DNA of 62,665 bases from an uncultured Chromatiales bacterium (lineage in GTDB: Bacteria > Bacteroidota > Ignavibacteria > SZUA-365 > CAYQST01). Location: the NCBI GenBank assembly GCA_964449305.1, contig CAYUYM010000002.1:1-62665 (forward strand), given 5' to 3'. Positions 25,077-51,366 of the stretch are shown in pieces. The notes beneath the pieces are model-generated. The model made no database searches, was not told the DNA's origin, and was given only the letters and a program-made list of their open reading frames with translations. Position numbers and translations under genes: made by a program. The first letter of the stretch is position 1. Every line of letters begins with the position of its first letter.

Positions 25077-25081
25077 ATTTG
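25074..25081 (+). promoter_or_regulatory. Possible -7 box overlapping the lptE stop codon
   Basis: TAAATTTG about 40 nt upstream of the GT2 start, in a locally AT-rich stretch. Confidence 0.3.
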
Positions 25082-25121
25082 TGTCTTGTTTTCTACACTC
25101 ATTGAGGTGGTGATTGAGATT

Positions 25122-26588: not shown

Positions 26589-26707
26589 TCGCCACGCGAT
26601 CCGCCTCCACCCCATCCGTCATCGGATCATGGTCACAGACGCTTTCCCCGCTGTCGGCTGCGATCCGATGATGCGTTTCGGACCCGCCCCCTCCCAAGGA
26701 CGACGCC

Positions 26708-27538: not shown

Positions 27539-27551
27539 CAAGGAGACCACC

Positions 27552-28094
27552 ATGCCCATCACCACATCCGACTCCGTCCTCCTCATCATCGACATCCAGG
27601 GCCGGCTCGCCCGCATCGTCCAGGATTCCGAGAAGCTCATCTCCAACGTGCGCATCCTTGTGCAGGGCATGAAGATCCTTGGCGTGCCCGTCATCGTCAC
27701 CGAGCAGTATCCGCAGGGCCTCGGGCACACCGTGGACGAGATCGCCCAGGAACTCGATGGGATCGATGTCATCGAGAAATCCGCCTTCAGTTGCTGCGGC
27801 GAGCCGGCCTTCATGAGTGCCCTCGCCGGGCTCGGCCGCCCCAATGTGCTGATGTGCGGCATCGAAACGCATGTCTGCGTGTACCAGACGGCCCGGGACC
27901 TTGTGGCCGCGGGCTACACCCCCCACCTCATCACCGATGCCGTCTCCAGCCGCTTTGCGGAAAACCGGACGCTCGGCGTGCATCGCATCGAGATGCTCGG
28001 AGGCGTGCTCACCGGCATGGAGATGGCGCTCTTTGAGCTCCTCCATGAATCCGGCACGCCACAGTTCAAGGCGATTTCCCGCCTTGTGAAATGA
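27552..28094 (+). CDS. Isochorismatase-family cysteine hydrolase
   Basis: LLIIDIQ, TEQYPQGLGHT, EKSAFSCC, GIETHVCVYQTA. AGGAG RBS. Confidence 0.92.
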   Translation: MPITTSDSVLLIIDIQGRLARIVQDSEKLISNVRILVQGMKILGVPVIVTEQYPQGLGHTVDEIAQELDGIDVIEKSAFSCCGEPAFMSALAGLGRPNVLMCGIETHVCVYQTARDLVAAGYTPHLITDAVSSRFAENRTLGVHRIEMLGGVLTGMEMALFELLHESGTPQFKAISRLVK

Positions 28095-32544: not shown

Positions 32545-34851
32545 TCAGAATTCCGCGGCGATCCCGATGCTCGGAAGGATGCCGATGGATGCCGAGGCAT
32601 TCTCCACACGGTTGTTGCGTACGTCCCAGCGGTCACCCTGGATGTTCTTCCGGTTGTAGACGTTCTGCACGTCGATGTAGGTGATGAGGTTCCACGATGT
32701 GAAATTCCAGCGCCGGTCCACACGCAGGTCGAGCGTGTGGAACGCCGGCAGCCGCCCGCTGTTGAAGCGCGAATAATCCCGCTGCCCCGTCGGCAGGAAG
32801 GGCGTGGTGGGCCCTCCCGTGGCGAAACGGAACTTCATGCTGAACTCCCAGGCGTCGTCGAGGCGCCAGCCGCCGGAGAGGTTGGCAATGATGCGCTGAT
32901 CAAAGGCACCCGGCCGCTCCACGCCGTCGAGGGCGGTGAAGTCCGTGCGGTTCCAGGAGATGCTGAGGATGCCGTAGCACGGGATCTCCGAGAGCCTCTT
33001 CTGCACCAGCAGCTCCACGCCTCGGGAGATGCCGCTCCCATCGCTGATGAGCGGATCGAATCCGAAGGAGGCGAAGTCCTCCTCCGCACCGCCGTAACCC
33101 GCTCCGGTGTTCGCGAGCACGAGCCAGGGTTTGTCCACACTCGCCGGGTAATCGGCATACTGCTTCACATAGCCCTCGAGCCGCACCTTGGTGTCGGGGC
33201 GCAGCAGATGCTCGAAACCGAGGACGGCCTGGTTGACGCGCACAAAATCCAGACGGCGGTTCACGGCGTTGGAGGTGAGCCAGATGTAGGACGGCGCCTG
33301 GTGATACACACCGCCGGAGAGCGACACGCTGCTCTCCTGCGTCATCTGCCAGGAGAGGGCGAGGCGCGGGCTGAAGACGAGGGGGTTGTCGATCATGGAG
33401 AAGTGATCCACCCGTGCACCGGCGGTGACGCGCACGCGATCCATCACCTGCTGCGCCACCTGGACGTAGGCCGCGAGCTTGAACGCCGTGGTGTCCCAGG
33501 TCCGGGCGAAGGGCTGCATGCGCTTGTACACCGCGGTCGTGTCGAGGTCGAGCACGCCGTCGATGCGGCCCAGCCTGCTGCTGGCGCCGAAGGAGAGTTC
33601 CGTGGTCTTCGCCACCTGGAACACGCCATCCATGCGCAGGATGGTCTCCGCCTCGCGGGAGTCCGACGTGAAGATGGGTGTGAGAAGCGAATCGGTCTGG
33701 AGGTAGCTGTAGTCCACCATGGTGCGCCCGAGGGCGAAGGTGAGGAAGCCGCTGGAGATCAGATGCCGCCAGGAGATGTTGGAAATGTACTGGTCCTGCG
33801 AGCTGCCCAGGATCCGGGAGTTCGAGAAGCGCTTGTCCTCCGTGTCATTGAAGAAGCGCACCTTGTCCAACGCGCCGATGGTGAAGAAGGAGACCTCGTT
33901 GTCGGAATCGATCGACATGGTGGCCTTGCCCAGGAAGTCCCAGTACTCCGGCACGAAGCCGAAGCCCGCGGCCTTGAAGATGAAGTCGAGATAACTCCGG
34001 CGTGCGGAGAGCAGGAAGGAGCCGCGCTCGCCGATCGGGCCCTCGGCGTTCACACCGAACTGGGAGGCGCTGACCAGGAGCTTGCCGCCGAGCCTGTCGT
34101 TGCGGCCATCCCTGAGATCGATGGTGAGCACCGACGAGAGCTTGTCACCATAACGGGCGCCGAAGCCGCCGGTGGAGAAGGTGACGTCGCGGATGAAGTC
34201 GAGGTTCACAAAGCTCAGCGGGCCGCCCGTGGCGCCCTGCGTCCCGAAGTGGTTGATGTTCGGCGTCTCGAGACCGTCGATCACGTAGAGGTTCTCCGAG
34301 GCGGCGCCGCCCCGCACGATGAGGTCGTTGCGCCCGGCGGAGACCTGCACCACACCCGGCAGGACGGAAATGGCGCGGATCACATCCTCCTGACCACCCG
34401 GGGCGCGCCGGATCTCCTCGTTGCTCAGCGACTGTGCGCTGACCTGCAGGTCGGTGTTCTGCCGGAAATAGTCCGCCTCCACCACCACGGTGCCGAGGTC
34501 GATGGTGGTGGGTTGCAGCGGCACGGCGATCTGGCTCTGGCGGCCCGATCCCACGCTCACATCCGTCACGATCATGGGTTTGTAGCCGAGCAGAGAGGCC
34601 TGCACCCGGTAGGTCCCGGGGGCGACGGCACGCAGCGTGAAATGCCCCTCGATGTCAGTGGCCGTGCCGATGGCCGTGCCCGGAATGGTGACCGCCGCGC
34701 CGATGAGCGGCTCCTTCGTCACCGCGTCGAACACGTGGCCGGTGATGGATCCCGTGGCGCCCCTGTCCGCCTGCGCAGACGCTCCGGCGCTCATGACCAT
34801 GGTCAACAGGGTGAGGAGAAGATGATGCTGGATGAATCGATGGGTGTTCAT
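32545..34851 (-). CDS. TonB-dependent receptor with N-terminal carboxypeptidase-regulatory-like domain
   Basis: EPLIGA.V.I.GT..GTATD..G.F.L, plug motif DLIVRGGAASENLYVIDG, GGFGARYGDKLSSV, terminal PSIGIAAEF. Confidence 0.93.
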   Translation of the reverse strand: MNTHRFIQHHLLLTLLTMVMSAGASAQADRGATGSITGHVFDAVTKEPLIGAAVTIPGTAIGTATDIEGHFTLRAVAPGTYRVQASLLGYKPMIVTDVSVGSGRQSQIAVPLQPTTIDLGTVVVEADYFRQNTDLQVSAQSLSNEEIRRAPGGQEDVIRAISVLPGVVQVSAGRNDLIVRGGAASENLYVIDGLETPNINHFGTQGATGGPLSFVNLDFIRDVTFSTGGFGARYGDKLSSVLTIDLRDGRNDRLGGKLLVSASQFGVNAEGPIGERGSFLLSARRSYLDFIFKAAGFGFVPEYWDFLGKATMSIDSDNEVSFFTIGALDKVRFFNDTEDKRFSNSRILGSSQDQYISNISWRHLISSGFLTFALGRTMVDYSYLQTDSLLTPIFTSDSREAETILRMDGVFQVAKTTELSFGASSRLGRIDGVLDLDTTAVYKRMQPFARTWDTTAFKLAAYVQVAQQVMDRVRVTAGARVDHFSMIDNPLVFSPRLALSWQMTQESSVSLSGGVYHQAPSYIWLTSNAVNRRLDFVRVNQAVLGFEHLLRPDTKVRLEGYVKQYADYPASVDKPWLVLANTGAGYGGAEEDFASFGFDPLISDGSGISRGVELLVQKRLSEIPCYGILSISWNRTDFTALDGVERPGAFDQRIIANLSGGWRLDDAWEFSMKFRFATGGPTTPFLPTGQRDYSRFNSGRLPAFHTLDLRVDRRWNFTSWNLITYIDVQNVYNRKNIQGDRWDVRNNRVENASASIGILPSIGIAAEF

Positions 34852-35130
34852 GCCTATCCATGGTTTGTGACACGGCTGCGCCCCCTGTGCGGGACGATTC
34901 GTGTACCTACAACGTTTTCCGTGTTTCCGTGGTTCCTTGTGTGGCGTGCGTCCGCTTCAGGCACACGTGCGGGCAGCGTGCCGCAGCGGGGCAGTGCAAT
35001 GTACCCAACCCTGGGATGCCATGCGCCATGAAGGGGACATGCATGAGGATGTAACACAAACTTCACACGCCGGTAACACCAGCGTAACATGCTGATGCGA
35101 GCTTTGTGCATCACAGAAAAAGGACCGCGC

Positions 35131-36315
35131 ATGAAAATCGCCTATGTCAATGCCAGTCTCCGGGTCGGTCAGGATGGCGTCAGCCGTGTCGTTCATACGA
35201 TGATCTCCGGGGCACGTGCGCGGGGACATGAGGTTGCCGGGATCACGGCCTCCGAACCGCTGGGAGCCGTGGACTACCCCATCTGCCGTGTCCCCTCCAT
35301 GGCGTTTCCGCTCCAGAAGAACTACCGCATCGCCTTTCCCGGATACCTCCAGTTCCGGAGCTTTCTGGACACGTTCCAACCGGACATGCTCCATCTCAAC
35401 AGTCCATGCACCCTGGGGTTCAGCGCTGTGAAGTATGCCGAAGCGTACGGTGTCCCGGTGGTCGCCACGTACCATACGCACTTCCCCTCGTATCCGCAGT
35501 ACTACAAGCTCAAGCGCTTCGAGCATGTTGCGTGGCGCATATCCCGGCATTTCTACAATGGGGTGGATCGGACCTTCATCCCGACAATGCCCATCCTCCA
35601 CGAGCTCGAGGCCCATGGCCTGGACCGTCTGGAATACCTGCCCAATGGTGTCGACACCACGGCCTTCAATCCCGCCTGGAGATCACATGCATGGCGGAGA
35701 CAGTTCGGCGAACGGGATGTTCCGATTGTGCTGTTTGTCAGCCGCCTGATGTGGGAGAAGAACCTGTCCGTGCTTGTGGAGACCTACAAGCGCCTGCGCG
35801 CGACACACGGCGACGGGTTCCACATGGTGATTGTCGGGACGGGGCACGCCCGGCAGGAACTGGAGGCGATGATGCCCGGAGCCCACTTCCTCGGGTATCA
35901 GCATGGCCGCGATCTGGCGACGAGCTATGCCTCGTCCGATGTGTTCGTGTTTCCCTCGACCACGGAGACCTTCGGTCTCGTGACACTGGAGGCGATGGCG
36001 TCAGGTGTTGCCCCGGTGGCTGCCGCCGCCGGCGGCGCTCTGGAACTCATCCAGCCTGATGTATCGGGCCTGCTGGCCGAGCCGTTCAACATCGACGATC
36101 TCACGCGGCGGGTCTCATGGCTGCTGTCCCATCCCGAATATTGTCGCACCATTGGAGAAAATGCCCTTGCCCGAGCGCGTCACTATGGTTGGGAGAGAAT
36201 CCTCGACCAGCTCTTTGCCACCTATGACCACGTCATCGAGGATGTGCGGAATGGGCGTGCCAGATCCGGCCACCGGAGAAGGCGGCCTGCCGCCCTTGCC
36301 ATCGAGGCTGCATGA
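35131..36315 (+). CDS. GT4 (GT-B) glycosyltransferase
   Basis: QDGVSR, VATYHTHFP, LPNGVD, LFVSRLMWEKN, VFVFPSTTETFGLVTLEAMASG (ExxxxxxxE). Confidence 0.92.
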   Translation: MKIAYVNASLRVGQDGVSRVVHTMISGARARGHEVAGITASEPLGAVDYPICRVPSMAFPLQKNYRIAFPGYLQFRSFLDTFQPDMLHLNSPCTLGFSAVKYAEAYGVPVVATYHTHFPSYPQYYKLKRFEHVAWRISRHFYNGVDRTFIPTMPILHELEAHGLDRLEYLPNGVDTTAFNPAWRSHAWRRQFGERDVPIVLFVSRLMWEKNLSVLVETYKRLRATHGDGFHMVIVGTGHARQELEAMMPGAHFLGYQHGRDLATSYASSDVFVFPSTTETFGLVTLEAMASGVAPVAAAAGGALELIQPDVSGLLAEPFNIDDLTRRVSWLLSHPEYCRTIGENALARARHYGWERILDQLFATYDHVIEDVRNGRARSGHRRRRPAALAIEAA

Positions 36316-37272: not shown

Positions 37273-38082
37273 ATGCGCCTCTCCATGTCCGATATCCTGC
37301 ATCGCATTCGATCCTTTTCGGTGCTCCGTGATCATTCTTCAGATCGCATCGCCGTCTTCGACCTCGATCACACGCTCATTGATGCGGATCTCGGCGAAGC
37401 CGTCCTTGCGGTGCTGCTCTGTCGTGGCGAGAAGGTGGGCATCACCTGGGAGACCTACATCCAGACCCGGCAGATCGATCCCCCGACGGCATACCGCGAT
37501 GCGGTTGCAGCAATGGGTGGGCTGCCTGAGATCAATCTCCGCTCCGCCACGGCGGAGGTCCTCACCACACGCCGGGCGGCGATTGACTTCGGGAACGTGT
37601 CCGTCCCCGTTCCCCGACCGCAACCCTGGGCGAGGGGGTTTCTGGCCGGGCTTCGTGAGATGGGGATGCCGACGCACGTCATCACCGCCACCGCCCACAT
37701 CTCCGCCGTCATGGCATGCCGCTACCATTTCGGGCTGGACCATGATCATGTGCACGGCGTGCGGCAGTTGGTGAAGCGCTCCCGCCTGACGGACTGCCTC
37801 ATCGAGCCGGCACCAATCGGCCAGGGCAAGGTGGATGTGTATTTGTCGACGATCGGTGATGAGCGGCCCCTCGTTGTCGCCACCGACAGTCTGCTGGATC
37901 TGCCGCTGATGCAGTTCTGTGATCCGGCGGGTCTCGCGTTGTGGGCGGGCAACGCGGAGGACGGCGGGATCGCGCGTGCCCTGGTCGGAGTCCGGGAGTT
38001 TGTCCGCATCCCTGGCGGGATGACCGGGATGTCGCATGATACTCGCCGTCCGGTGACCGCAGGTGCCATGCGTCGCGGGTGA
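37273..38082 (+). CDS. HAD-IB family hydrolase (SerB-like)
   Basis: VFDLDHTL motif I, VITAT motif II, GKV motif III, TDSLLD motif IV. Confidence 0.75.
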   Translation: MRLSMSDILHRIRSFSVLRDHSSDRIAVFDLDHTLIDADLGEAVLAVLLCRGEKVGITWETYIQTRQIDPPTAYRDAVAAMGGLPEINLRSATAEVLTTRRAAIDFGNVSVPVPRPQPWARGFLAGLREMGMPTHVITATAHISAVMACRYHFGLDHDHVHGVRQLVKRSRLTDCLIEPAPIGQGKVDVYLSTIGDERPLVVATDSLLDLPLMQFCDPAGLALWAGNAEDGGIARALVGVREFVRIPGGMTGMSHDTRRPVTAGAMRRG

Positions 38083-38155
38083 CGCGGGCGCGGCGCGGAC
38101 CATGCGTCGGCGAGCGGATTTGCGTACCTTCGTCTTCGACATCTGCGGAGCCCTC

Positions 38156-38740
38156 ATGCCCACACCGGAAATCCTGACACAACGACTGATCCTGAACGCT
38201 CTGCGGCGGGAGGATGCTGCTGCGGTGTTCGCCTACCGCGCTGATCCGGAGGTGCAGCGCCACCAGTCCTGGGCACCGGCCTCCGTGGAGGAGGTCGCCC
38301 CCTTTCTGATCGGGGATGCACCGACGCAGCCGGGCACGCCGGGAACGTGGTTTCAATTCGGGATCCGGCTGCGGGCATCGGGTGCGCTGATTGGTGACCT
38401 CGGCGTCCACACAGATGCAGACGATTCACGCCAGGCCGAGCTGGGCATCACCATCGCCCCCTGGGAGCAGCGCAGGGGCCTCGGCTCCGAGGCGCTCGCG
38501 GGGATGATCACCTGGTTGTTCACAACACGCAACCTGCACCGCATCCATGCGTCGGTGGACCCGCGCAACACGGGATCGGTTGCCATGCTCCGGCGTGTCG
38601 GATTGCGCCAGGAGGCGCACTTCCACCGGAGCCTGTGGTTCAAGGGGGAGTGGGCGGATGACCTCGTCTTCGCCGTGCTCGCATCCGAATGGACGGCACG
38701 CTTCTCAGGCATGGAATCGCTGTCAGGAATACACGCGTAG
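38156..38740 (+). CDS. GNAT N-acetyltransferase, RimJ/RimL family
   Basis: TQRLILNALRRED, LIGDLG, ELGITIAP..Q.RGLG, DPRN.GS..MLRRVGLRQEAH. Confidence 0.9.
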   Translation: MPTPEILTQRLILNALRREDAAAVFAYRADPEVQRHQSWAPASVEEVAPFLIGDAPTQPGTPGTWFQFGIRLRASGALIGDLGVHTDADDSRQAELGITIAPWEQRRGLGSEALAGMITWLFTTRNLHRIHASVDPRNTGSVAMLRRVGLRQEAHFHRSLWFKGEWADDLVFAVLASEWTARFSGMESLSGIHA

Positions 38741-40672
38741 GACCGCCGCCTCCACGAACGCGTCGATCCGCTCCTGTGCCACCTCGAAGCGCACGGCGCC
38801 GGGGCCGTCGCCTCGGCCACGCATGCGCAGGATCGCCTCCAGCGTCTGAAGGAACACATCCACATCCCGCTCGTTGTTCTCAATGCCAAGGCTCGCGCGC
38901 ACAACGCCCATGAAGCGGAACCGGGGGGCGATGTGCTGGATCACCCATTGCAGCCGCTGCACCATGGGCGGGATCCCGAGCATGTGCTTGACAAGGATGT
39001 GTGCGCAGTGGCAGCCGTAGCGGACACCGATACCGCCGTGGGCGGCAAGCTCCCGGGCGATGCTGCGAGGCATCCTGCCCTTCACATCGAAGGCGATCAC
39101 CCCCACCTTGCGCGCGTACAGCGGGGAGTCCGGATCCGCGATGCCGAACACCCGCACACCGGAGATCTGCGAGAGGCCTCGCAGCATCCGCGTGGTCAGC
39201 GCCCGTTCACTGTCGCGGATCACCTCCATGCCGATGCGCTGGAGCAGCGCCAGCGCGCGTCCAAGCGCGGCGATGCCTGCAGCGTTTTCCGTGCCGGATG
39301 CGTGGATCGCGTCCATCTCAGCGGCACCGTACTTCAACAGCCCCGAACGCACCACGAGGGCACCGGAGCCGAACGGGGCGTAGACTTTGTGCGCGGAGAA
39401 GGCGAGGGCATCGATGCCATCGCGGCGCATGTCCACACGGCCATGGGCCACAAGCTGGGCGCCATCCACCATGATGAGTGCCCCATGGCGGTGGGCCAGG
39501 GCTGCTGCTGCGGCGACGTCGTTGCAGCTTCCGAGCACGTTGGACGCGCCGCTCATGGTGACGAGCACGATGCGCTTTCTGCCGAACCGGTGTTCCACAT
39601 TGTGCTCACGCAGCACGGTCTCCATCGCAGCCAGATCCACGAAGCCGTCGGAATCCACCCCCAGGCGGATGATGGAATGCCCGGGCAGGAGGCGCCATGG
39701 CAGGTCGTTCGACGAGTGCTCCAGGAGGGTGGTGAGGATCACCGGCTCGGCATCCGGCTGGACGGTGCGCCCGATGCTGCCTGCCATGAGGGTGACCGCC
39801 TCGGTGGTGTTCATCGTGAAGAGCACATCGTACTGCCCGGCCGGGGCGCCCAGCATGTCGGCACAGATCGCCGAGGCATTGCGCACCACGGCATGGCGCG
39901 CCTCATCCGGCAGACGCAGCGTCTCCCGGAATGCGTCCCACACCGGGGCGAAAGTGCGCGTGCTGGCGCTGTTGTCGAGGTTGATGGCACGCGCCTCACC
40001 GGAGGACGTGGGGACGCGCAGGTCGCCGCCGATGAGCGAGTCGCGCAGCCGCTGCCGCAGGGCGTCGCCTGCGTCCGGCTCCAAAACGCCGAAATGATGG
40101 AGATCGGGAGGCGACGCATGCCCGTCCGACGCATGGGGGAGGGCCGTCACTTCATGGCGCCGCAGCAGTTGGAGCGCGCGGGCGAAGGCGATGACGTTGA
40201 TGATGGCCGGCGTGCCTGCCTCGAAACGGTCGGGGGCATCGGCCCAGATCACCCAGTCCGGTGCCATGAGCTTGGTGGTGCCCCCGCCCGCCTGTGATGG
40301 AACGCCCGTGGGCAGCGCCGTCCGCAGCACCACGAGCGCATGCACGCCGAGGGCGAGACCGATGTCGGCGCTCGAAAGGTGGATCACCTGGCCCGGTGCG
40401 ATCACCGCTTCCAGCGCGTCCGCACCACGCCTGGAGCAGAAGAGCACAACGTGGTGCCTTCCATCGAGGCCCAGGTGACGGAGGACGATGTCTCGCGCGT
40501 GTTCGTAGAGGCGTGTCGAAACAAGGGAATTGTGTCCGCTGCCGCGATGGACATTGCAGTAGGTGCGCAGCGCCGTGTGGATGCTCTGCTCGAGGGCCCG
40601 GACGATGTCCATGTCCCGCGCAGTGGTGTCCGTGATGGAGGGGAGGGGTGCTGTCTGATGCGGATCGTTCAT
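38723..40672 (-). CDS. Class V aminotransferase-fold (SufS-like cysteine desulfurase) with a partially duplicated N-terminal domain
   Basis: C-terminal part: LDNSAST, NTTEA, EHSSNDLPW, DGAQ, SAHK (PLP Lys), GCHCA, VRASLG. The N-terminal ~200 aa carry NVHRG and GGGT...RFEAGTP. Confidence 0.85.
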   Translation of the reverse strand: MNDPHQTAPLPSITDTTARDMDIVRALEQSIHTALRTYCNVHRGSGHNSLVSTRLYEHARDIVLRHLGLDGRHHVVLFCSRRGADALEAVIAPGQVIHLSSADIGLALGVHALVVLRTALPTGVPSQAGGGTTKLMAPDWVIWADAPDRFEAGTPAIINVIAFARALQLLRRHEVTALPHASDGHASPPDLHHFGVLEPDAGDALRQRLRDSLIGGDLRVPTSSGEARAINLDNSASTRTFAPVWDAFRETLRLPDEARHAVVRNASAICADMLGAPAGQYDVLFTMNTTEAVTLMAGSIGRTVQPDAEPVILTTLLEHSSNDLPWRLLPGHSIIRLGVDSDGFVDLAAMETVLREHNVEHRFGRKRIVLVTMSGASNVLGSCNDVAAAAALAHRHGALIMVDGAQLVAHGRVDMRRDGIDALAFSAHKVYAPFGSGALVVRSGLLKYGAAEMDAIHASGTENAAGIAALGRALALLQRIGMEVIRDSERALTTRMLRGLSQISGVRVFGIADPDSPLYARKVGVIAFDVKGRMPRSIARELAAHGGIGVRYGCHCAHILVKHMLGIPPMVQRLQWVIQHIAPRFRFMGVVRASLGIENNERDVDVFLQTLEAILRMRGRGDGPGAVRFEVAQERIDAFVEAAVLRVYS

Positions 40673-41184
40673 GCTGCGTTCGATCTCCGAGGTTCGTGAA
40701 TGCCGTTGCCGATGTCAATGAGCCTGTTCAACGTCATCCCGCGCCCGATGTTTCACCCCGTGGCATGTTCGGAGAAACCCGGGATGGTGCAACGTCCGCG
40801 TCACGCGATGAAAGGCGGCGGCGATGGCAGGGATGCATGAGCGGGGTCCTGCCACAACCCGGTGACGTGCGACGATGCATGTCGGCGCGGAGCCGTATAC
40901 ATCACCATGGGCGCTCCGGAACCGAGCCCACCGCGCGTCGATCATCCTCCAATGTTGTGACAGTACGCAGCATCACGGTGCGGGAGAGCCTCCCAGTACG
41001 TGCATGGCAACGCAGGCATGGCGAACACGTGCGTGAATGCGTCGCATATGTCAGGCATTCGGATGTACATTTGGAAAGGCCGGTTGCGGCATGAACATCA
41101 TCGTGAGCATCACCATGAAACCGGGGCTCATTCCACCAAATCCCAGGTTGACCGTGAGGCGTTTCATCGAGAAAGCATCTATCG

Positions 41185-41258
41185 TGGGCCCTGCCGGACT
41201 TGAACCAGCGACCAATGGATTATGAGTCCACCGCTCTGACCAACTGAGCTAAGGGCCC
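41185..41258 (-). tRNA. tRNA-Ile2 (anticodon CAU, lysidine-modified type); CCA not encoded
   Basis: The reverse complement GGGCCCTTAGCTCAGTTGGTCAGAGCGGTGGACTCATAATCCATTGGTCGCTGGTTCAAGTCCGGCAGGGCCCA folds into a cloverleaf. The CTCATAA loop and overall sequence resemble the E. coli ileX type rather than initiator or elongator Met. Confidence 0.9.
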
Positions 41259-41467
41259 GCAAGCGGATCACCAAGATACGCCCGACAGGGCGGAAAATCA
41301 ATGGCGTGACTCTCCAGATGCCATCTCCACCTCTCCGCTTCGATTCCGCCCTCAGGATGATGCCCCCGCGGCCTGGAACTCGAATGCCGTGGAATGCCGT
41401 TTCCCATGGTGGCTGCCGTGCAGCCGGGGGACACCTCCCAACAGTTCACTTCATCACAGGAGCACAC

Positions 41468-41683
41468 ATGTCGACCAAAATCTCCATCCTCAACAACGGC
41501 CCGCTCATTGTCGAGGGCCAGGTCTCTCTCGCTGATGGTGCCGGCAAGGAATTCGGGCTGGCCGGCCGTGAAAAGATCTTCCTCTGCCGCTGCGGCCACT
41601 CCACGAAGAAGCCGTTCTGCGATGGCGCCCACAAAGCCAAGGGCTTCGAGGACGCCTGCCAGGCCTACGACATCAACGCCTGA
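41468..41683 (+). CDS. CDGSH iron-sulfur domain protein
   Basis: NGPL.V.G, FLCRCGHSTKKPFCDGAH. AGGAG RBS. Confidence 0.92.
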   Translation: MSTKISILNNGPLIVEGQVSLADGAGKEFGLAGREKIFLCRCGHSTKKPFCDGAHKAKGFEDACQAYDINA

Positions 41684-41768: not shown

Positions 41769-42158
41769 TCAGCCTTTAACGGCGATGCAGGCGATCTCGA
41801 CAAGGCCGTCCTTCGGCAGGCGGGCCACTTCCACCGCCGCGCGGCTGGGGGGATCGGCGGTGAAGTATCCCGCATAGATCGCGTTCATGGCAGCGAAGTC
41901 GTTCATGTCCTTGAGATACACCGTGCAGGCCACCACGTCTCCAAACGTGCAACCCGCTGCGTCGAGAATGGCGGCGAGGTTCTTCAGGGCACGGTCGGTC
42001 TGTTCCTGCACACCACCCTCCACAAAGCTGCCGGTGGCGGGGTCGAGCCCGAGCTGACCGGAGACAAAGACCATGTTTCCCGCGATGTTGGCCTGGCTGT
42101 AGGGACCGAGCGCGGCGGGAGCGGATGCGGTTGCGACGATTTCACGATGATGCGACAT
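41769..42158 (-). CDS. ridA: RidA/YjgF enamine-imine deaminase
   Basis: APAALGPYSQA, FVSGQL, YLKDMNDFAAMN, PSRAAVEVARLP...VEI with the catalytic Arg retained. Confidence 0.95.
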   Translation of the reverse strand: MSHHREIVATASAPAALGPYSQANIAGNMVFVSGQLGLDPATGSFVEGGVQEQTDRALKNLAAILDAAGCTFGDVVACTVYLKDMNDFAAMNAIYAGYFTADPPSRAAVEVARLPKDGLVEIACIAVKG

Positions 42159-42327
42159 GGGGGACTCCTGTGTTGTTCGATGCGGTGGACAGCGCTCGTG
42201 GCTGCATGTCCGCAAGTTTTCACTTTTCGACCGATCATGCAACACACATGGCTTGCAGGTCACAACCCCGGCATCGTAACTTGTCAGCCCTGCCCGTCCA
42301 CCCTTTCATCCGAAAATCCGTCCCCCC

Positions 42328-43045: not shown

Positions 43046-43780
43046 TCAGCCTTCGGCGCGTACACCCAGCAGCGCGTCGGCGGGCATCCGCTCATAGGCG
43101 ATGGGATCATCGTGTCCCGCGCGGCGGAAGCCGCGGAGACGCAGCACACAGGATTCACACACACCGCAGGCGCTGTCCTCATTCTTGTAACAGCTCCACG
43201 TGAGCTGCAGGGGCGCGCCGATCTCCAGCCCCGTGCGGACGATCTCCGCCTTCGACATGGCTATCAGCGGCGTGTGAATCACCAGGGGATGTTCATACTT
43301 CGTGCCGGTCTCGATCACCCGTTGATACGCATCATAGAAACTCTTCCGGCAGTCGGGGTAGCCGGAGGAATCCTCCTCCACCGCGCCGATGTACACCGCT
43401 TCAGCGCCCAGCACCTCGGCCCAGCTCACCGCAATGCCGAGCATGTTGCCATTGCGGAAGGGGACGTAGGTGTTCGGAATGCCCTGCGGCCCCGTGCCGG
43501 CATCGGCGATTGCAAGATGCGTGTCGACGAGACTCGAGCCGCCGATGCGGGCCAGATGCTCGATGGAGACCACCATCCGCAGCGCGGGGGCCACGCGGTA
43601 GTGATCCGCGATCTCGTTGAAGGCCCGCAGTTCGCGTGCCTGCGTCCGCTGCCCGTAGTTGATGTGCAGTGCCGCCAGTGTGAAATCCCGGTCCGCCAGC
43701 CCGGCGCACACGCAGGAATCCATCCCGCCGCTGATCAGCACAACGGCGAGCGGTTTTTCGGACGTGGACATGGTGCTCAT
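43046..43780 (-). CDS. queC: 7-cyano-7-deazaguanine synthase
   Basis: SGGMDS, YGQR, TYVPFRN, YPDCR, TPL...K, TWSCY, CGVCESC..R. Confidence 0.96.
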   Translation of the reverse strand: MSTMSTSEKPLAVVLISGGMDSCVCAGLADRDFTLAALHINYGQRTQARELRAFNEIADHYRVAPALRMVVSIEHLARIGGSSLVDTHLAIADAGTGPQGIPNTYVPFRNGNMLGIAVSWAEVLGAEAVYIGAVEEDSSGYPDCRKSFYDAYQRVIETGTKYEHPLVIHTPLIAMSKAEIVRTGLEIGAPLQLTWSCYKNEDSACGVCESCVLRLRGFRRAGHDDPIAYERMPADALLGVRAEG

Positions 43781-44121
43781 TCGGGCTTCGTGTATTCCAC
43801 CTCGATGATGGAATGAATGCCGCCGCGTGTGTTGAAGCGCCCACTCACCTTCATGTACCTCGGCTGGCAGACACCCACGAGGTCGTCGAGGATCTCGTTG
43901 ACAGCCGTCTCGAAGTAGATGCCCTTGTTGCGGAAGTCAAGATAGTAGTACTTCAGCGACTTCAGCTCGATGCACAGCGCGTCGGGAATGTAGTGGACGG
44001 TGATCGTCGCGAAGTCCGGCAACCCGGTCATCGGACAGACGGAGGTGAACTCCGGATTCACGTGCGTGATCTCGTAGTTGCGCCGGGGGTATTTGTTCTC
44101 AAAGACGTCGATGGTGGCCAC
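43777..44121 (-). CDS. queF: PreQ1 synthase (NADPH-dependent nitrile reductase, unimodular type)
   Basis: EFTSVCPMTGLPDFA, ELKSLKYY, FNTRGGI. Confidence 0.95.
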   Translation of the reverse strand: MATIDVFENKYPRRNYEITHVNPEFTSVCPMTGLPDFATITVHYIPDALCIELKSLKYYYLDFRNKGIYFETAVNEILDDLVGVCQPRYMKVSGRFNTRGGIHSIIEVEYTKPE

Positions 44122-44247
44122 GGGGGTCCTTCAATTGTGAAACACTGCGGCAATAGTACGACCTGTCCCGTGCACGACGCAAGGCACAGGGTTCGATGAC
44201 TGTGGGTGAACCGAAGCGGGTGATGGGGGCGATGCGTCCTGCCGGTG

Positions 44248-44904
44248 TCACACGCCGCGGGCGTCCGGATCCCAGATGAACTTGTGCATCTGAAGCTGCA
44301 TGCGTACAGGAAGTCCGTCGCGGAGGATCCACGCCGCCAGGCCCCGTGCCTGGAGCGAGCCGAACACGGGGGACAGGATGATCTCGTCGCAGTGGCTCCC
44401 AAGGTTGTGGTCCATGATGAAGGACCGCGCCCACAGGTAGTCCGCCTCATCGGCGAGGACGAACTTCACCTCGTCTCCCCGTTTGAGGTGATCGATGTTG
44501 GCCAGCCTGTTGCGCTTCATCATGCCGGAACCGGGGCATTTCACATCCATGATGACGACGACGCGCGGATCGACCGCGGAGATGTCGACGTGCCCGCCCG
44601 TCTCGACGGCAACCGTGCAACCCTGATCGCAGAGAGCGGTGAGCAGCACGAATGCCGCCGGCTGCTCCAGCGGTTCCCCGCCCGTCAGCTCCACGAAGCG
44701 GCATGGGGCATGCATCGCCACCTCGGCGAGCACCGCGTCGATGGTCATCGATCGGACCATTTCACGATGGTCGAGCGCATAGGGCGTGTCGCACCAGGTG
44801 CAGCGCAGACCGCAGCCCTGAAGCCGCACAAACACGCACGGAAGCCCGGCGCGTGAGCCCTCGCCCTGGATGCTGAGGAAGATTTCGTTGATGGAGATGG
44901 TCAT
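44248..44904 (-). CDS. queE: 7-carboxy-7-deazaguanine synthase (radical SAM)
   Basis: EIFLSIQGEG, VRLQGCGLRCTWCDT, LTGGEPL, ETGG, QLQMHKFIW. Confidence 0.95.
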   Translation of the reverse strand: MTISINEIFLSIQGEGSRAGLPCVFVRLQGCGLRCTWCDTPYALDHREMVRSMTIDAVLAEVAMHAPCRFVELTGGEPLEQPAAFVLLTALCDQGCTVAVETGGHVDISAVDPRVVVIMDVKCPGSGMMKRNRLANIDHLKRGDEVKFVLADEADYLWARSFIMDHNLGSHCDEIILSPVFGSLQARGLAAWILRDGLPVRMQLQMHKFIWDPDARGV

Positions 44905-44982
44905 GGGTATCGCTCCGTGGCTCGACAATCGTGCGGAATTTACTATTTTCTCCTCATGTTGTTCCATCGTCGCCCATGCCCC

Positions 44983-45591
44983 ATGCTTCGTTTCCACACC
45001 CTGCGCGCACTTCCCCTCATCCTCGGCGCAATCCTCTGCCTGTCCGGGTGTTCAGGCGACCGGTCATCGGACCTCGGGGAATTTCTCACCGGGTATCTGA
45101 AGGCGCATCCGAAGGCCGATGTACAGGACGTCTACAAACTGCTTTTTCAGGGCGTCTTTGGTGTCGGGCACATCATCACTTCACAGCAGGAGGCCGCGCA
45201 GTTTCTCGCCAGGGAGATGGCCTCCATGCCAGCGAGGTCGGGCGAGCCCATGACGGAACCATGTCGACCCGACGGAGGCATGCTCCGCGTGAACCTGCGG
45301 CCCTTTCGCGATGCAGCAATGAACACGGATGACCTCATCGCCGCCATGATGGAAACGGCGGCCTCGGTGAAGGCTGCGCCGGAGGAATTCGCCTCCCTGT
45401 GGAGTGCTGTGGGTGACCTCATCGAGGATGGTGTGCTTCCCCTTGACCTCGATGAATACAACGCCCTTACTGACGATCTGCTGGAACAGAACTGGCCGGC
45501 CGTGCATCATTCCGATGACTACTCCCACGCGTATGCACCCGCCTACCGGGTTGTGAGCCGCGAGGCGTGGGAGCGGCACTTCGCGAAGTGA
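44983..45591 (+). CDS. Hypothetical lipoprotein
   Basis: Lipobox LSGC. HPKADVQDVYKLLFQ..GVGH, LRVNLRPF, HHSDDYSHAYAPAYRVV. Codon usage is gene-like. Confidence 0.6.
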   Translation: MLRFHTLRALPLILGAILCLSGCSGDRSSDLGEFLTGYLKAHPKADVQDVYKLLFQGVFGVGHIITSQQEAAQFLAREMASMPARSGEPMTEPCRPDGGMLRVNLRPFRDAAMNTDDLIAAMMETAASVKAAPEEFASLWSAVGDLIEDGVLPLDLDEYNALTDDLLEQNWPAVHHSDDYSHAYAPAYRVVSREAWERHFAK

Positions 45592-45595
45592 TGCG

Positions 45596-46423
45596 TCAGT
45601 AGCGCCCGCCCCGCTCCACGCAGGGGTCTTTCGGTTGCACGATGTCACAGTTGAGAAGTTCCTGATGGACACGCCGCCGTTGCAGCGTGAAGGGCAGGCG
45701 CCCGCCGAGCAGGGCGAACAGCAGGCTCGATCCGTCTCCCATCACCAATCCGAGCGGTCTGCACAGCCAGAAGCTCGCGTTCTCCTTGATGATGGTGGGG
45801 TTCAGCAGATCCTGCGGGTTCTGGAGGTTGGGGAAGCGCGCATCGATGGTGACGAGGATGCGTGCGCAGTTCTTGAACGTGCGTGTGTCCGTCGTCACCG
45901 TCTCATAGCCGATGAAGGCGGCTTTGACCCTGATGTAGATCGGAAAGAGCGGGATCTGGTTGAACTCGAAGTTGAGGATGCTCCAGGTCGTGCCATAGGT
46001 TTCCTCGAGTGGGAAGGGCACAAGCAGGAGCTCCGACGGGAAGCTCCCGATGCCGGGCAGGTTCGGAAGCAATCCCGCCCGCAGCGCCGGGCTCGTGAAG
46101 TGCACGCCGCGCCCGGATTTCCTGATGTACAGTGTATCGAAGGTGACGTCCACCCCGGCGGAGACCTCGTTGACCTGCACGGCGTAGATCCCTGAATCTC
46201 CCTCCATGGAGCCGATGATGCGCGAGGTCTGCCGCTGGACATCGCGCACCGTCCGCCCGTCGGAGCCTGTCGTATCGATGCGGTAGGTCCAGAACGTGCC
46301 CTTGAGCGTGGGATAATACTGCTGATCCGCGTAGATCGGCTCGCCACCCGACGACACGGGGGACTTGGAACACGAACCGAGGGCCAGCGTCAGGAGGAGT
46401 GCGGGAAGAATGAGCTTGTTCAT
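45596..46423 (-). CDS. Hypothetical lipoprotein
   Basis: MNKL...LGSC lipobox, YYPTLKGTFWTY, beta-rich body. Confidence 0.65.
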   Translation of the reverse strand: MNKLILPALLLTLALGSCSKSPVSSGGEPIYADQQYYPTLKGTFWTYRIDTTGSDGRTVRDVQRQTSRIIGSMEGDSGIYAVQVNEVSAGVDVTFDTLYIRKSGRGVHFTSPALRAGLLPNLPGIGSFPSELLLVPFPLEETYGTTWSILNFEFNQIPLFPIYIRVKAAFIGYETVTTDTRTFKNCARILVTIDARFPNLQNPQDLLNPTIIKENASFWLCRPLGLVMGDGSSLLFALLGGRLPFTLQRRRVHQELLNCDIVQPKDPCVERGGRY

Positions 46424-47157: not shown

Positions 47158-48987
47158 TCAGCCGTCGATCACGTCGATCACGGTGTCGACACGGCCGAAG
47201 GGGGCGGCGACCTGGATGCCCGCGATGAGGGGGCGGATGCGTTCGAGCGTCTCGCGCGCGATGAGGATGCCCTCCGCCCGCTGCCCGTCCCTGCTGTCGT
47301 GCCGCCGCATGCGCGCCAGCAGCTCATCGGGCACGACGCAGCCGGGGACCTCGTTCTGCATGAACTCGGCATTGCGCACCGAGGCGAGCGGCCAGAGCCC
47401 CGCCAGCACGGGCAGGTGGATGTGCCCGATGCGGTGCATGAAATTCTCGAAGACGCGGACGTCGAACACGGGTTGTGTGATGATGAACTCCGCGCCCGCC
47501 TCCACCTTCCAGTCGAGCCGCCGCAGCTCCTGCTCCATATTCAGCGCGCCCGGGTTGGCTCCCACGCCGATGTGGAAGGCCGATGGTGCACCGATGGGGT
47601 TGCCCGCGATGTCGAGCCCGTGGTTGAGCCGGTGGATGACGTTGACAAGGCCGATGGCATCCACATCGAACACGGCCGTGGCGTCCGGGTAGTTGCCGAG
47701 CTTCGGCGGGTCGCCGGTTATGGCGAGGATGTTGCGCACACCCAGTGCTGCGGCGCCCAGGAGGTCGGACTGGATGCCGATCACGTTCCTGTCCCGGCAC
47801 GCATAGTGGAGCACGGTCTCGATCCCTATGCGCGTCTGGATCTGCACGGCCAGCGCCAGCGCCGACATGCGCGCCGAGGCCCGCGGGCCGTCGGGGATGT
47901 TGATCGCATCAATGCCGTAGTTGAACAGCGTGCGTGCGCGCCCGAACTCCCGGTCCGCCGCCACGCCGCGGGGGGCGACGAGCTCCACAAGTGTCACGAA
48001 ACGCCCGTCGGACAGGCGGCGGGCAAGGCGGGACTTCTCCGCGCGCGGTGTCGCATCCACATGTTCCGGCGTGGCGCCGACGTGGGTGGCGGGCTGGGTG
48101 CGGTGCGTCTGCATGCCGAGGGCACTGATTGCATCTCGCATGCGGCGGATGTGGTCGGGCGTCGTGCCGCAGCATCCGCCGATGATGGCCGCCCCCGCCT
48201 GAAGGAAGTGCTTGGCGTATGTCCCGAGATACTCGGGCGAGGTGAGGTAGAGATTGCGGCCGTCCACATTGCGCGGCTTTCCGGCGTTGGGCATCACGCT
48301 GATCGGCAGATCGGTGAGCTCCGTGGCCCGTTCAAGCCAGGTGAGCATCACCGCGGGACCCACCGTGCAGTTGACGCCGAGCACATCGGGGCGGATGTCC
48401 TCCAGCTCGCGCACCATCACATCCACCGTTGCGCCGGTGAGCGATCCCCCGTCGTCGTTCATCGTCATCTGGGCCACGATCGGCAGGTCGCACACGGAGC
48501 GCACGGCCAGCACGGCCTGCTCCAGCTCTCCGGGGTAGACGAAGGATTCCAGGACGAAGAGGTCGACGCCCCCGTCGCAGAGCGCCCGCGCCTGCATGGC
48601 GACATGCCCGCGGACCTCCTCGCGGGCGAGCGGGCCGAGGGGCTCCATCTGCACACCGAGCGGGCCGATGGCGCCGGCCACGTACACATCCGCACCCGCC
48701 GCCTCGCGTGCGATGCGTGCCGCGGCGGCGTTGATCTCCGTCAGGCGATCCTCGAGCCCGTGGGCCCTGAGCTTGAACCAGTTGGCCCCGAACGAATTCG
48801 TCTCGATCACATCCGCACCGGCGAGGACGTAATCCGCATGGACCTGGCGCACGAGGGCGGGGTTGGTGAGGTTGAGCTCGTCGAAGCAGGTGTTGATGAA
48901 GACGCCGCGTGCGTACAGCTCGGTGCCCATCCCGCCGTCGAACAGGATGACGCCGCGCTTCAGGCGGTCGCGAAACGGTTCTCTCAT
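47158..48987 (-). CDS. yitJ: Bifunctional homocysteine S-methyltransferase / methylenetetrahydrofolate reductase
   Basis: FDGGMGT, ETNSFGAN, GVNC, GGCCGTTP (Zn ligands). MTHFR domain NIPDGP, CRDRN, TGDPP, FIITQP. Confidence 0.93.
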   Translation of the reverse strand: MREPFRDRLKRGVILFDGGMGTELYARGVFINTCFDELNLTNPALVRQVHADYVLAGADVIETNSFGANWFKLRAHGLEDRLTEINAAAARIAREAAGADVYVAGAIGPLGVQMEPLGPLAREEVRGHVAMQARALCDGGVDLFVLESFVYPGELEQAVLAVRSVCDLPIVAQMTMNDDGGSLTGATVDVMVRELEDIRPDVLGVNCTVGPAVMLTWLERATELTDLPISVMPNAGKPRNVDGRNLYLTSPEYLGTYAKHFLQAGAAIIGGCCGTTPDHIRRMRDAISALGMQTHRTQPATHVGATPEHVDATPRAEKSRLARRLSDGRFVTLVELVAPRGVAADREFGRARTLFNYGIDAINIPDGPRASARMSALALAVQIQTRIGIETVLHYACRDRNVIGIQSDLLGAAALGVRNILAITGDPPKLGNYPDATAVFDVDAIGLVNVIHRLNHGLDIAGNPIGAPSAFHIGVGANPGALNMEQELRRLDWKVEAGAEFIITQPVFDVRVFENFMHRIGHIHLPVLAGLWPLASVRNAEFMQNEVPGCVVPDELLARMRRHDSRDGQRAEGILIARETLERIRPLIAGIQVAAPFGRVDTVIDVIDG

Positions 48988-49976: not shown

Positions 49977-50392
49977 TCGCCCATGAACTGGACGACGAGT
50001 GTGCGCATCCGCGGCCGGTTGTCGAAGTCCACGAGCACCACCTGCTGCCAGGTGCCCAGCAGAAACCTCCCGCTGCCGAAGGGGATGATGAGGGACGGTC
50101 CGACGGTGGAGGAGCGGACATGTGCGTGCCCGTTGCCGTCGTTCCAGGTTTCCTCGTGGGCGTAGCGGGCGCTCCGGGGGGCGAGGCGCTCCATGGCGGC
50201 CTCGAAATCCTGTTTCAGCCCGGGCTCGAATTCGATGGTCGTCAGCGACGCGGTGGAGCCGGCGACAAAGATGAGCGCGTGCCCCTGCTGCAGGTGATGC
50301 TTGTCGAGCAGGAGCCCCAGCCGGTGCGTGATGTCGATCATGTCGCAGTTGCCCATGGTGTCGACATGGAGGGAATCGTTGATGATCTTCAT
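49973..50392 (-). CDS. yjbQ: YjbQ/UPF0047 family protein
   Basis: GSTASLTTIE.E, YAHEE..NDGNGHAH, LGTWQQV..VDFD.RPR.R. Confidence 0.92.
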   Translation of the reverse strand: MKIINDSLHVDTMGNCDMIDITHRLGLLLDKHHLQQGHALIFVAGSTASLTTIEFEPGLKQDFEAAMERLAPRSARYAHEETWNDGNGHAHVRSSTVGPSLIIPFGSGRFLLGTWQQVVLVDFDNRPRMRTLVVQFMGE

Positions 50393-51276
50393 GGGAGGTC
50401 GTCGGGCAGGGTGTGGGATGTGAGGATGTGGGCGTCCTTCAGGTGGATGATGCTCCGCCGGTGCTGGAAGAAGGAATCGGCCGAGGGGCCAGGAAGCCCC
50501 GTGTTGATCTGCTCGGCATACAGCAGATCGCCCGTGGTCCGATCCGCGATGAGCATGTACTGATCGAGTGCCGGAGCCTCGTTGGTGGACAGCTCCGCGC
50601 TCTCGTGCCAGGCAGCCACGATGCAGGTGCCGGTGGTGAGCAGGTCGAGCTGCCCCTGCACACGCGGGATGTCCACAAGCTGCGTGATCAGCCCGCCCAC
50701 GGATGCGGCGTCGGGGTGGGTGGCGTCGAAGGCCTGCGGGTAGCGGTAGTCGGCGAACCAGTCGACGGCGTTGATCTCGTCGCGGAGGCTGCGGATGCGG
50801 GTGTCGTCGTTGCCGAGATCGCGGACGAGCGAGCCGTCGGTGGCGTGGAGGATGAACCAGCGGCGGCCCTCGAACGAGGACTGGGAGGCGAAGACATCGG
50901 TGCCGACGGCGAACTCGAAGATGTGGTCGGCGTTCCGCCACAGGATACGCCCCGTTGCCAGGTCCACCGCGTGGATGCCGAGCGGCGAGGGCATGTCGGG
51001 GCGGCGGTAGCCGTGGAAGTACGCGACGCCGTCATAGATGCCCGCGAGGCTGATCCACCAGGGCTCCTCGAAGCGGAGTCCGCTCCACAGGACGCGGCCG
51101 TCATCGGCGGCGACGCAGGCAAAGCTGGCGGTGCGGGCCTCGGGGTTCCGCTCCTCGATGAGGATGCGGCCGTCGTCCGAGATGCGGATCATCCAGAGCA
51201 ACTGGTCGGATTCATAGCTCCACGAGGGCAGCGTGCGTGAAGCAGGAGAGGTTTTCGAATTTTTCCAGGGAAGCAT
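50389..51276 (-). CDS. DUF4905-like beta-propeller protein
   Basis: WMIRIS...IEERN, G.VLW.GL.FEEPWW, RPDMPSPLGI.AVD..TG.ILW, DSFF. The family assignment is from memory. Confidence 0.6.
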   Translation of the reverse strand: MLPWKNSKTSPASRTLPSWSYESDQLLWMIRISDDGRILIEERNPEARTASFACVAADDGRVLWSGLRFEEPWWISLAGIYDGVAYFHGYRRPDMPSPLGIHAVDLATGRILWRNADHIFEFAVGTDVFASQSSFEGRRWFILHATDGSLVRDLGNDDTRIRSLRDEINAVDWFADYRYPQAFDATHPDAASVGGLITQLVDIPRVQGQLDLLTTGTCIVAAWHESAELSTNEAPALDQYMLIADRTTGDLLYAEQINTGLPGPSADSFFQHRRSIIHLKDAHILTSHTLPDDLP

Positions 51277-51366
51277 GAGGTGTCCTTCAATCGAAAAAAA
51301 GTAGGGGTTTCACGGGAGCATTGCAAACGTCTTTTTCGGCATCCTCCAGAAGGGTATCTTCCCGCC

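Follow-up and report, generated by a model that had tools for sequence, protein, structure and literature searches.

How can one gene carry what appear to be pieces of two copies of a dimeric enzyme? By the textbook, fold-type-I pyridoxal-phosphate (PLP) enzymes must dimerize, since every active site takes some of its residues from the other subunit, and the question is raised by an open reading frame (ORF) in a 62,665-nt stretch of DNA, hereafter the window, from an uncultured Chromatiales bacterium (GenBank assembly GCA_964449305.1, contig CAYUYM010000002.1). The gene, taken from the ORF list, lies at positions 38723–40672 on the minus strand, which is also the strand of all its segments given below, and encodes a SufS-like protein of 649 amino acids (aa) plus a stop codon, with full-length homologues at 50–56% identity. 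Its GC content at third codon positions (GC3) is 0.83, with the other called ORFs spanning 0.72–0.90. We propose, with a probability of roughly 0.7 for architecture and chemistry jointly, that the product is a type-II (SufS-like) PLP enzyme of the cysteine-desulfurase type in which a single-chain pseudo-heterodimer, arisen by duplication and reciprocal loss, stands in for the obligate homodimer, and which would carry out L-cysteine or L-selenocysteine chemistry on C556. In the literature searched, no cysteine desulfurase was found described as single-chain or pseudo-dimeric.

In profile searches, each half of the chain matched the same models. The Pfam family Aminotran_5 (PF00266) matched in full at aa 231–607, covering profile positions 2–371 of 371 (E 2e-69; 234.6 bits against a gathering score of 21.5). 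When the first 229 residues were searched alone, a second, partial match to this family appeared at aa 109–177 (profile positions 207–275, E 2.9e-11), and the NCBIfam model TIGR01979 (sufS) also matched this N-terminal part (N-part; E 6e-11). Alignment to Staphylococcus aureus SufS (8d8s) was non-collinear, as query segments 15–67, 282–446, 124–172 and 469–564 corresponded, in this order, to chain residues 35–87, 94–250, 254–302 and 292–380.

As a collinear reference, we used a hidden Markov model (HMM) of 473 states built from 18 short-form proteins of a sister family. This model splits the 649-aa protein into four blocks, two in the N-part (aa 25–79 matching states 49–103, E 8e-13; aa 102–176 matching states 236–310, E 5e-17) and two in the C-terminal half (C-half; aa 206–453 matching states 12–261, E 4e-57; aa 459–618 matching states 286–443, E 9e-39). 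Across 60 long-form proteins, that is, homologues with both parts, the N-part occupies states 52–103 and 243–308. The internal losses of the C-half in these proteins are states 58–73, the loop with the HRG motif, and states 262–284, the Gly-rich loop with its β-hairpin; gaps otherwise reach at most 4 columns. The columns that the N-part alone has (58–73 and 262–284) coincide exactly with these two large gaps. Estimated from block lengths, the chance that both deletions (16 and 23 columns) would fall inside the 118 columns retained in the N-part is ~0.04, a figure that ignores that these two segments are the trans-acting elements. Such exact complementarity against a collinear sister family confirms, at the level of sequence, that the duplicated, complementary pattern of the 649-aa protein is real. 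As to which copy lies closer to the sister family, the 79 shared columns had no resolving power, with identities of 25% between N-part and C-half, 30% between N-part and sister family and 27% between C-half and sister family.

The N-part follows a variable and probably disordered tail (aa 1–24, 40601–40672), where the mean top-residue frequency is 0.27, gaps make up 36% and the predicted local distance difference test score (pLDDT) is 40–62. Block 1 (aa 25–79, 40436–40600; conservation 0.83) comprises a helix, the HRG loop, which corresponds to the α3–α4 loop of SufS, a second helix and strand ‘a’. Within it, NVHRGSGH (aa 40–47, 40532–40555) is the counterpart of the SufS V54-H55-R56-G57 loop, with NVHRG itself (aa 40–44) at 40541–40555. 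The following segment (aa 80–101, 40370–40435), as judged from the HMM map and the modelled secondary structure, holds an α6-like helix (aa 81–90) and a short strand (aa 96–100), and at this junction ~130 residues of the large-domain core are gone (states 104–235, including the His, Asp, Gln and Lys). Block 2 (aa 102–176, 40145–40369; hmmsearch E 4.6e-17, and the segment of the partial Pfam match) continues with strand ‘g’, the Gly-rich loop, the β-hairpin, the cis-Pro, EAGTP and a long helix. By conservation and alignment, its stretch GGGT...W...AP.RFEAGTP (aa 129–155, 40208–40288) represents the elements of the Escherichia coli SufS β-latch (G251–253, S254, hairpin, P271) together with T278. 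A linker (aa 177–205, 40058–40144; conservation 0.65, lowest in blocks 171–190, with a pLDDT dip to 65 at aa 181–190) leads from this relic to the catalytic unit.

That unit (aa 206–618, 38819–40057) is complete in its large PLP domain and small Cys domain and is without the HRG loop and hairpin. The place where the loop is gone lies at aa 252–258 (39899–39919), seen as a gap in the hmmsearch alignment, and in the HMM maps and alignment a 5-residue stump (aa 454–458, 39299–39313) stands in place of the 23-column Gly-rich loop and hairpin, followed by SG(E/T)EN. The helix after the EAGT equivalent is still present. At the position of the trans-acting Thr, the C-half has Glu in 114 of 120 relatives, and T461 of the 649-aa protein (39290–39292) is the sole Thr in the alignment. 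The PLP Schiff-base lysine, K429, sits in SAHK (aa 426–429, 39386–39397), and VRYGCHCAH (aa 550–558, 38999–39025), aligned to the ‘GHHCA’ motif of SufS, forms a short type-II Cys loop in which R551 equals SufS R359 and C556 equals C364. The chain ends in a variable C-terminal helix or tail (aa 619–649, 38726–38818; conservation 0.46, modelled helix at aa 625–648).

An initial annotation of this DNA, made from the letters alone, had anticipated much of this anatomy. The 649-aa ORF and its motif positions are as it gave them, and the C-half indeed holds the catalytic-site motifs and lacks the HRG loop and the GGG hairpin. It had also described an N-part that keeps only NVHRG and GGGT...EAGTP and has no LDNAAT, PLP Lys or catalytic Cys. 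Both motifs are there, but ‘only’ does not hold, as the flanking helices, the strands equivalent to a and g, the α6-like helix and the helix after EAGTP are kept as well. The PLP Lys and Cys are absent, as are the substrate Arg, the PLP core and the whole Cys-bearing small domain; an LDxxAT-like ITDTTA does exist at aa 13–18, but in the unconserved tail.

Conservation, counted over 120 aligned sequences, was as high in the relic as in the catalytic unit (mean top-residue frequency 0.79 for the N-part versus 0.77 for the C-half), and the HRG and EAGTP blocks reached 0.93 and 0.90 versus 0.96 for the Lys block. Invariant in the N-part (120/120) are N40, R43, G44, G46, G129–G131, T132, W143, E151, G153 and P155, with H42, P147 and T154 each at 119/120. 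In the C-half, H319, N378, D403, Q406, S426, H428, K429, C554, C556 and R592 are invariant, and R551 is found in 119/120. Thus T154 is kept in the N-part of all relatives but one, while its C-half equivalent is Glu in most, which speaks for a division of labour between the halves as proposed.

To see how widely this architecture occurs, we surveyed both protein databases and genomes. More than 120 full-length relatives of 592–689 aa (50–56% identity, 91–100% coverage) were found in the protein database, where their names go no further than ‘selenocysteine lyase/cysteine desulfurase’ or ‘aminotransferase class V-fold PLP-dependent enzyme’. A scan with one genome per species gave 596 relatives, including long forms and the shorter collinear forms (ORFs of 440–505 aa, loci L065–L083). 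Long forms span many bacterial phyla and Asgard archaea: they occur in Bacteroidota (including cultured Aquimarina), Chloroflexota/Anaerolineales, Acidobacteriota, Actinomycetota, Myxococcota and Melioribacteraceae, in an alphaproteobacterial metagenome-assembled genome (MAG), and in Thor- and Hodarchaeota, whose copies show the same four-block map. In two loci on MAG contigs of the MFD sample series (L060 and L078), apparent frameshifts interrupt the long-form genes; these are probably assembly errors rather than signs of pseudogenes.

The two parts are found fused. The N-part alone, searched against 1.84 billion representatives, matched 566 clusters at E <= 1e-3, 232 at <= 1e-10 and 66 at <= 1e-30. 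Among the short matches, 12 (100–460 aa) were inspected; they either break off abruptly or read on into the linker or C-half before turning into frameshifted junk, so they are truncated or frameshifted fragments, and no free-standing, split-gene form of the N-part was seen among them. The complete N+C unit also occurs inside giant predicted proteins, P0181 (2150 aa), P0217 (3349 aa), P0251 (6923 aa), P0197 and P0249, as would fit a self-contained module. The two giants with source names, of 2,150 and 3,349 aa, are predicted polypeptides of Candidatus Omnitrophota MAGs. The idea that the unit serves there as an ‘SH-domain’ of polyketide synthases or non-ribosomal peptide synthetases was dropped, as Pfam shows only Aminotran_5 with HD, or with PMI and protein kinase domains, in these proteins.

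What the retained pieces might do can be read from SufS. Its β-latch consists of the α6 helix, G251–G253, the hairpin 256–266 and cis-P271, and the Gly-rich loop and hairpin belong to the active site of the neighbouring monomer (PMC10011822). H55 and R56 sit on the mobile α3–α4 loop, from which R56 swings over by ~10 Å to the sulfur of the substrate, making contact with T278, G277 and V54 (PMC11507941). In the alignment, V41-H42-R43-G44 of the N-part are equivalent to V54-H55-R56-G57, G129–G131 and T132 to G251–G253 and S254, P147 to P271, and T154 to T278.

The history we envisage would begin with an ancestral SufS-like gene, resembling the extant collinear sister family of ~440–505 aa, that was duplicated in tandem and fused. 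The C-terminal copy (aa 206–618) would have kept the residues acting in cis (T289/T290, H319, N378, D403, Q406, S426, H428, K429, R551, C556 and R592) and lost the elements that serve a partner, namely the HRG loop, the Gly-rich loop with the β-hairpin and, in most members, the phosphate-binding Thr too. The N-terminal copy (aa 25–176) would have lost the PLP core (states 104–235) and the small domain, keeping the partner-serving elements on a minimal scaffold. We infer from these correspondences a docking geometry in which the relic would pack on the C-half as the partner protomer does in SufS, closing one active site per chain: R43 and H42 would gate substrate and persulfide, T132 with the Gly-rich loop and hairpin would cover C556, and T154 would bind the PLP phosphate. 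The second, symmetry-related active site would no longer exist. L-Cysteine (or selenocysteine) would be converted to alanine, leaving a persulfide (or perselenide) on C556. Half-of-sites activity has been reported for SufS enzymes (PMC10216065), so dropping one of two sites would cost little.

The relic might instead be a structural cap or regulatory remnant over the old hydrophobic dimer interface, stabilizing a monomeric C-half that is open, latch-less and type-I-like, with HRG, GGG and EAGT playing no catalytic part. Mutational data on SufS point both ways here: H55A is nearly silent, with minimal catalytic effect, but R56A is strongly impaired (PMC11507941), and N99 latch mutants stay active with an external reductant (PMC10011822). 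The equivalent of N99 in the N-part is Leu, in line with a cap. However, capping does not need H42, R43, G129–G131, T132, P147 and T154 to be conserved in 119–120 of 120 sequences across bacteria and archaea, and the short rigid type-II Cys loop has been kept. We therefore regard a mere cap as very improbable.

The arrangement of the two parts was assessed by structure prediction. AlphaFold2, run on the full chain with the 120-sequence alignment, gave a mean pLDDT of 89.3 and a predicted template modelling score (pTM) of 0.91; in this model the 649-aa chain is one compact rigid body that includes the N-part. The modelled N-part consists of a helix (13–36), the HRG loop (37–46), a helix (47–66), a strand (74–79), a helix (81–90), two strands (96–100 and 111–116), a hairpin (133–136/141–143) and a helix (157–173). 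When the N-part was modelled alone (aa 1–200, with a 61-sequence alignment), the pTM was 0.62. Its scaffold blocks 61–120 and 161–180 remained at pLDDT 83–94, and the HRG loop (42–50) and the stretch with Gly-rich loop, hairpin and EAGTP (125–153) contained values below 50. For the HRG loop, pLDDT was 67 in the full model versus 47 in the N-part alone, and for the GGGT–EAGTP block 84–89 versus 35–64. Order in these elements thus depends, in the models, on the C-half, which is what packing against that half would predict. Foldseek returned SufS chains as top matches (1t3i, E. coli SufS and Bacillus subtilis SufS), with template modelling (TM) scores of ~0.8 normalized to the target and ~0.52 normalized to the query; the latter fits superposition of the modelled C-half alone (~410 residues).

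A single-chain model cannot tell packing within a chain from swapped packing, and the N-part of one chain could complement the C-half of another, so that two active sites would form in a domain-swapped homodimer or oligomer. With 30 residues, the poorly conserved linker (aa 177–205) would reach in either topology, and fold-type-I enzymes are normally dimers (PMC7259800). Yet the monomer model is compact, no sequence feature demands a second chain, and in the giant polypeptides the unit sits mid-chain, where swapping would be harder. Complementation between chains is an unlikely arrangement, if somewhat less so than the cap. The single-chain pseudo-heterodimer, proposed in the initial annotation as a tandem duplication with reciprocal loss that left one chain with both cis and trans elements, is supported in part: the complementarity, the Asgard map, the near-invariant residues, the one-body model, the loss of loop confidence and the published β-latch (PMC10011822) all favour it.

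Several points limit or weigh against this single-chain proposal. Coevolution analysis (mean-field direct coupling analysis of 216 non-redundant long forms; effective number of sequences, Meff, 176; length 599) was too weak to reveal contacts between the halves: its top pairs were noisy, with artefacts at near-invariant columns, and pairs between N-part and C-half were not enriched. The drop in loop confidence is indirect, as the alignment for the N-part alone was shallower (61 versus 120 sequences) and protruding loops generally score low. In the CsdB and SufS crystal structures, the PLP of one subunit is served in trans by the HRG loop and T278, the EAGT Thr, of the other, but in the texts searched an explicit statement to this effect was found only for the β-latch. 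N99, the linchpin of the SufS β-latch, is Leu in the N-part (L87) and Asn in the C-half (N294, 119/120), so either the wiring of the latch departs from that of SufS in some detail or this contact is made across the two halves; the monomer to which N99 belongs is not stated in PMC10011822. The score of 212 with TIGR01979, against a cut-off of 475, means that SufS-type function is not assured. Finally, no conserved operon partner, and with it no linked sulfur-acceptor gene, emerged from an all-against-all ORF comparison over 63 loci, in which the commonest neighbour family was present in 7 of 63; the top clusters were not annotated.

Type-II desulfurases, that is, SufS, CsdA (CsdB) and plastid Nfs2, share with the 649-aa protein the class-V fold, the PLP Lys in SxHK, the His over the PLP ring, the D...Q pair and the substrate Arg, as well as the short rigid Cys loop R-x-G-x-H-C-A without an insertion of type-I length, and the HRG loop, Gly-rich loop, β-hairpin, cis-Pro and EAGTP. 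SufS chains are its best matches both by sequence (E 1e-33 to 1e-23) and by fold (target-normalized TM as above). However, in SufS and CsdA the latch and HRG loop are collinear within the catalytic chain, whereas here they are found in the N-terminal relic only (aa 40–47 and 129–155) and in non-collinear order. SufS and CsdA form a symmetric homodimer with two interface sites; the 649-aa chain would, to judge from its sequence, probably have a single site. Scores also fall short of the cut-offs of the other curated models (143 versus 661 for NF006791 SufS, 150 versus 494 for TIGR03392 and 146 versus 607 for NF008126 CsdA). A transpersulfurase (SufE, SufU or CsdE) is usually encoded near SufS and CsdA, and none is linked to the 649-aa gene among the Pfam-matched ORFs over ~23–55 kb. 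Unlike SufS, moreover, the family has an extra invariant Cys, C554, two residues before C556 and in place of SufS H362, giving a CxC motif, GC(H/F)CAH, that is common to the sister family (GCFCAHPY) and the Asgard copies. C554 may act as a resolving Cys or bind a metal.

The same architecture could serve another chemistry: that of a selenocysteine lyase, of a cyst(e)ine or thiol-conjugate C–S lyase, or of a self-resolving desulfurase that releases sulfide or S0 through C554-x-C556 without an acceptor of the SufE/SufU type. Scores that do not reach the family cut-offs for SufS, CsdA and SclA, the lack of a suf, isc or acceptor gene nearby or conserved, and the invariant CxC shared with the sister family all point in this direction, and in one Bacteroidetes locus the next gene downstream encodes a thioredoxin fold. 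On the other side, none of the residues that SufS uses for cysteine desulfuration varies, neither R592, which binds the carboxylate, nor the catalytic C556, and SufS-type enzymes remain the nearest relatives by sequence and fold. We infer the substrate, like any role of C554, from these likenesses, and consider a different chemistry possible though clearly less probable than the one proposed; it would be compatible with the single-chain pseudo-heterodimer.

The search for linked genes covered the Pfam-matched ORFs over ~23–55 kb of the window, among which there were no suf, isc, tusA or rhodanese-type genes, so the remark in the initial annotation that no suf or isc gene is adjacent stands within this scope; five ORFs had no match, and 34852–36004, most of a glycosyltransferase ORF, was not covered. 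These negatives concern linked genes, and a sulfur-acceptor partner may be encoded at a distance. A GNAT or thioredoxin-fold protein was considered as partner and rejected, as each lies near single loci and did not recur in two other loci whose called genes were read.

Among known systems, the nearest architectural precedent, by analogy and not by family membership, is the glycine decarboxylase P-protein (GLDC; GcvPA/GcvPB), in which two homologous fold-type-I halves or subunits, in one chain or as an alpha–beta pair, have the PLP lysine in the C-terminal half only (PMC7259800). The 649-aa protein would likewise be a pseudo-dimer of an N-terminal half without the Lys and a catalytic C-terminal half. 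The P-protein differs in that its dead half is full-size (~450 aa, compared with a relic of ~150 aa here), in that it still dimerizes, and in belonging to another PLP subfamily with another chemistry; it also exists in split form, whereas no two-gene form of the 649-aa family was found among the 12 short N-part matches inspected. In serine palmitoyltransferase, LCB1 is a dead fold-type-I paralogue without the PLP Lys that completes the single active site of its partner LCB2. These are two separate full-length polypeptides of another subfamily, with no reduction to a mini-domain. The cargo desulfurase of family 2A encapsulins (NF041166, ~620 aa) is of similar length and has its SufS-like domain at the C terminus, but its N-terminal ~220 aa form a disordered cargo-loading domain where the 649-aa protein has a relic desulfurase copy. 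Identity with this cargo enzyme was rejected, as NF041166 matched aa 269–562 only, with 163.6 bits against a cut-off of 800, and no ORF scanned over 23–55 kb matched an encapsulin family in Pfam.

The collinear sister family (~440–505 aa; Clostridia, Ignavibacteria, Calditrichaceae and Chitinophagales) is 31–37% identical to the 649-aa protein and shares with its family INxDNAAST, EHxSNDLPWR, GASNV(T/L)G, SAHK(M/V)YAPFG.G and GC(F/H)CAH. Its own motifs come in canonical order: INFDNAAST, WYSSIHRGTG, EHHSNDLPWR, GASNVTG, VDGAQL, SAHKMYAPFGTG, GGGT..W.D.P..EEAG(S/T)PN, GCFCAHPY and RxS. Unlike the 649-aa family, it has a single copy that is complete, WYSSIHRGTG loop and GGGT hairpin included, and is presumably an ordinary homodimer. 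One member is collinear with SufS over residues 8–385, yet scores 306 bits against the sufS cut-off of 475, and this CxC-bearing family appears uncharacterized in its own right. Examples are a gene of Brassicibacter mesophilus (locus L070, 6001–7287) and one of Vallitalea maricola (locus L068).

A family that keeps only the borrowed pieces would amount to a deletion experiment carried out by evolution, defining the minimal set of trans elements of a SufS-type site as the α3–α4 HRG loop, the β-latch and the phosphate-binding Thr. Such an asymmetric, one-site system could be used to dissect half-of-sites behaviour and persulfide protection in type-II desulfurases, and suggests a design route to monomeric PLP enzymes. 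It also flags several hundred genes with the generic name ‘aminotransferase class V’ as a distinct family (Bacteroidota, Chloroflexota, Acidobacteriota, Actinomycetota, Myxococcota, Omnitrophota and Asgard archaea). The odds seem about even that this family represents a widely distributed, hitherto unrecognized class of fold-type-I PLP enzymes freed from the obligate-dimer rule, with the partner cut down to a cis ‘active-site lid’ of ~150 residues and a one-site desulfurase module that is used alone or in giant proteins and perhaps, through the CxC, independently of SufE/SufU.

The 649-aa gene stands by itself; around it lie genes for a GT4 glycosyltransferase, a metallophosphoesterase, a HAD hydrolase, a GNAT, a tRNA-Met, a CDGSH protein, RidA, DUF480, QueC, QueF and a radical-SAM protein. 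The GNAT gene (Acetyltransf_3; 38063–38740, plus strand) converges on the 649-aa gene, their 3′ ends overlapping by 18 nt, and in Bacteroidetes loci L002 and L003, too, the homologue has an Acetyltransf_3 gene ~1 kb upstream. At 511 bp upstream of the 649-aa gene, Rfam placed a tRNA-Met (anticodon CAT) at 41184–41258 on the same minus strand, its only match around the gene; in the 510-bp spacer (40673–41183), neither Rfam nor consensus scans for promoters and terminators gave a match. The tRNA is closely preceded by genes for a CDGSH iron-sulfur-type protein (41306–41683, plus strand) and a RidA (L-PSP) protein (41769–42263, minus strand). These two relate loosely to Fe–S and PLP side-product chemistry, and no neighbour family exceeded the above 7 of 63 loci.

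Elsewhere in the window, high-GC3 ORFs without a Pfam match at E <= 1e-5 lie at 24632–25198, 26633–27862, 45147–45461 and 45596–46423 on the minus strand and at 51280–51777 on the plus strand. A cluster at 43046–44997 (minus strand) of QueC, a QueF-like and a radical-SAM gene, the latter possibly QueE, suggests an operon for 7-deazaguanine or queuosine precursors. At 47158–48987 (minus strand), a 609-aa fusion joins a homocysteine S-methyltransferase domain to a methylenetetrahydrofolate reductase domain. A hint of a high-GC member of the Bacteroidota/FCB group, possibly Rhodothermia-like, comes from a TonB-dependent receptor with a CarboxypepD_reg N-domain (32545–34851) and a DUF4905 protein (50389–51276), encoded on the same strand, with GC contents of 60–69%.

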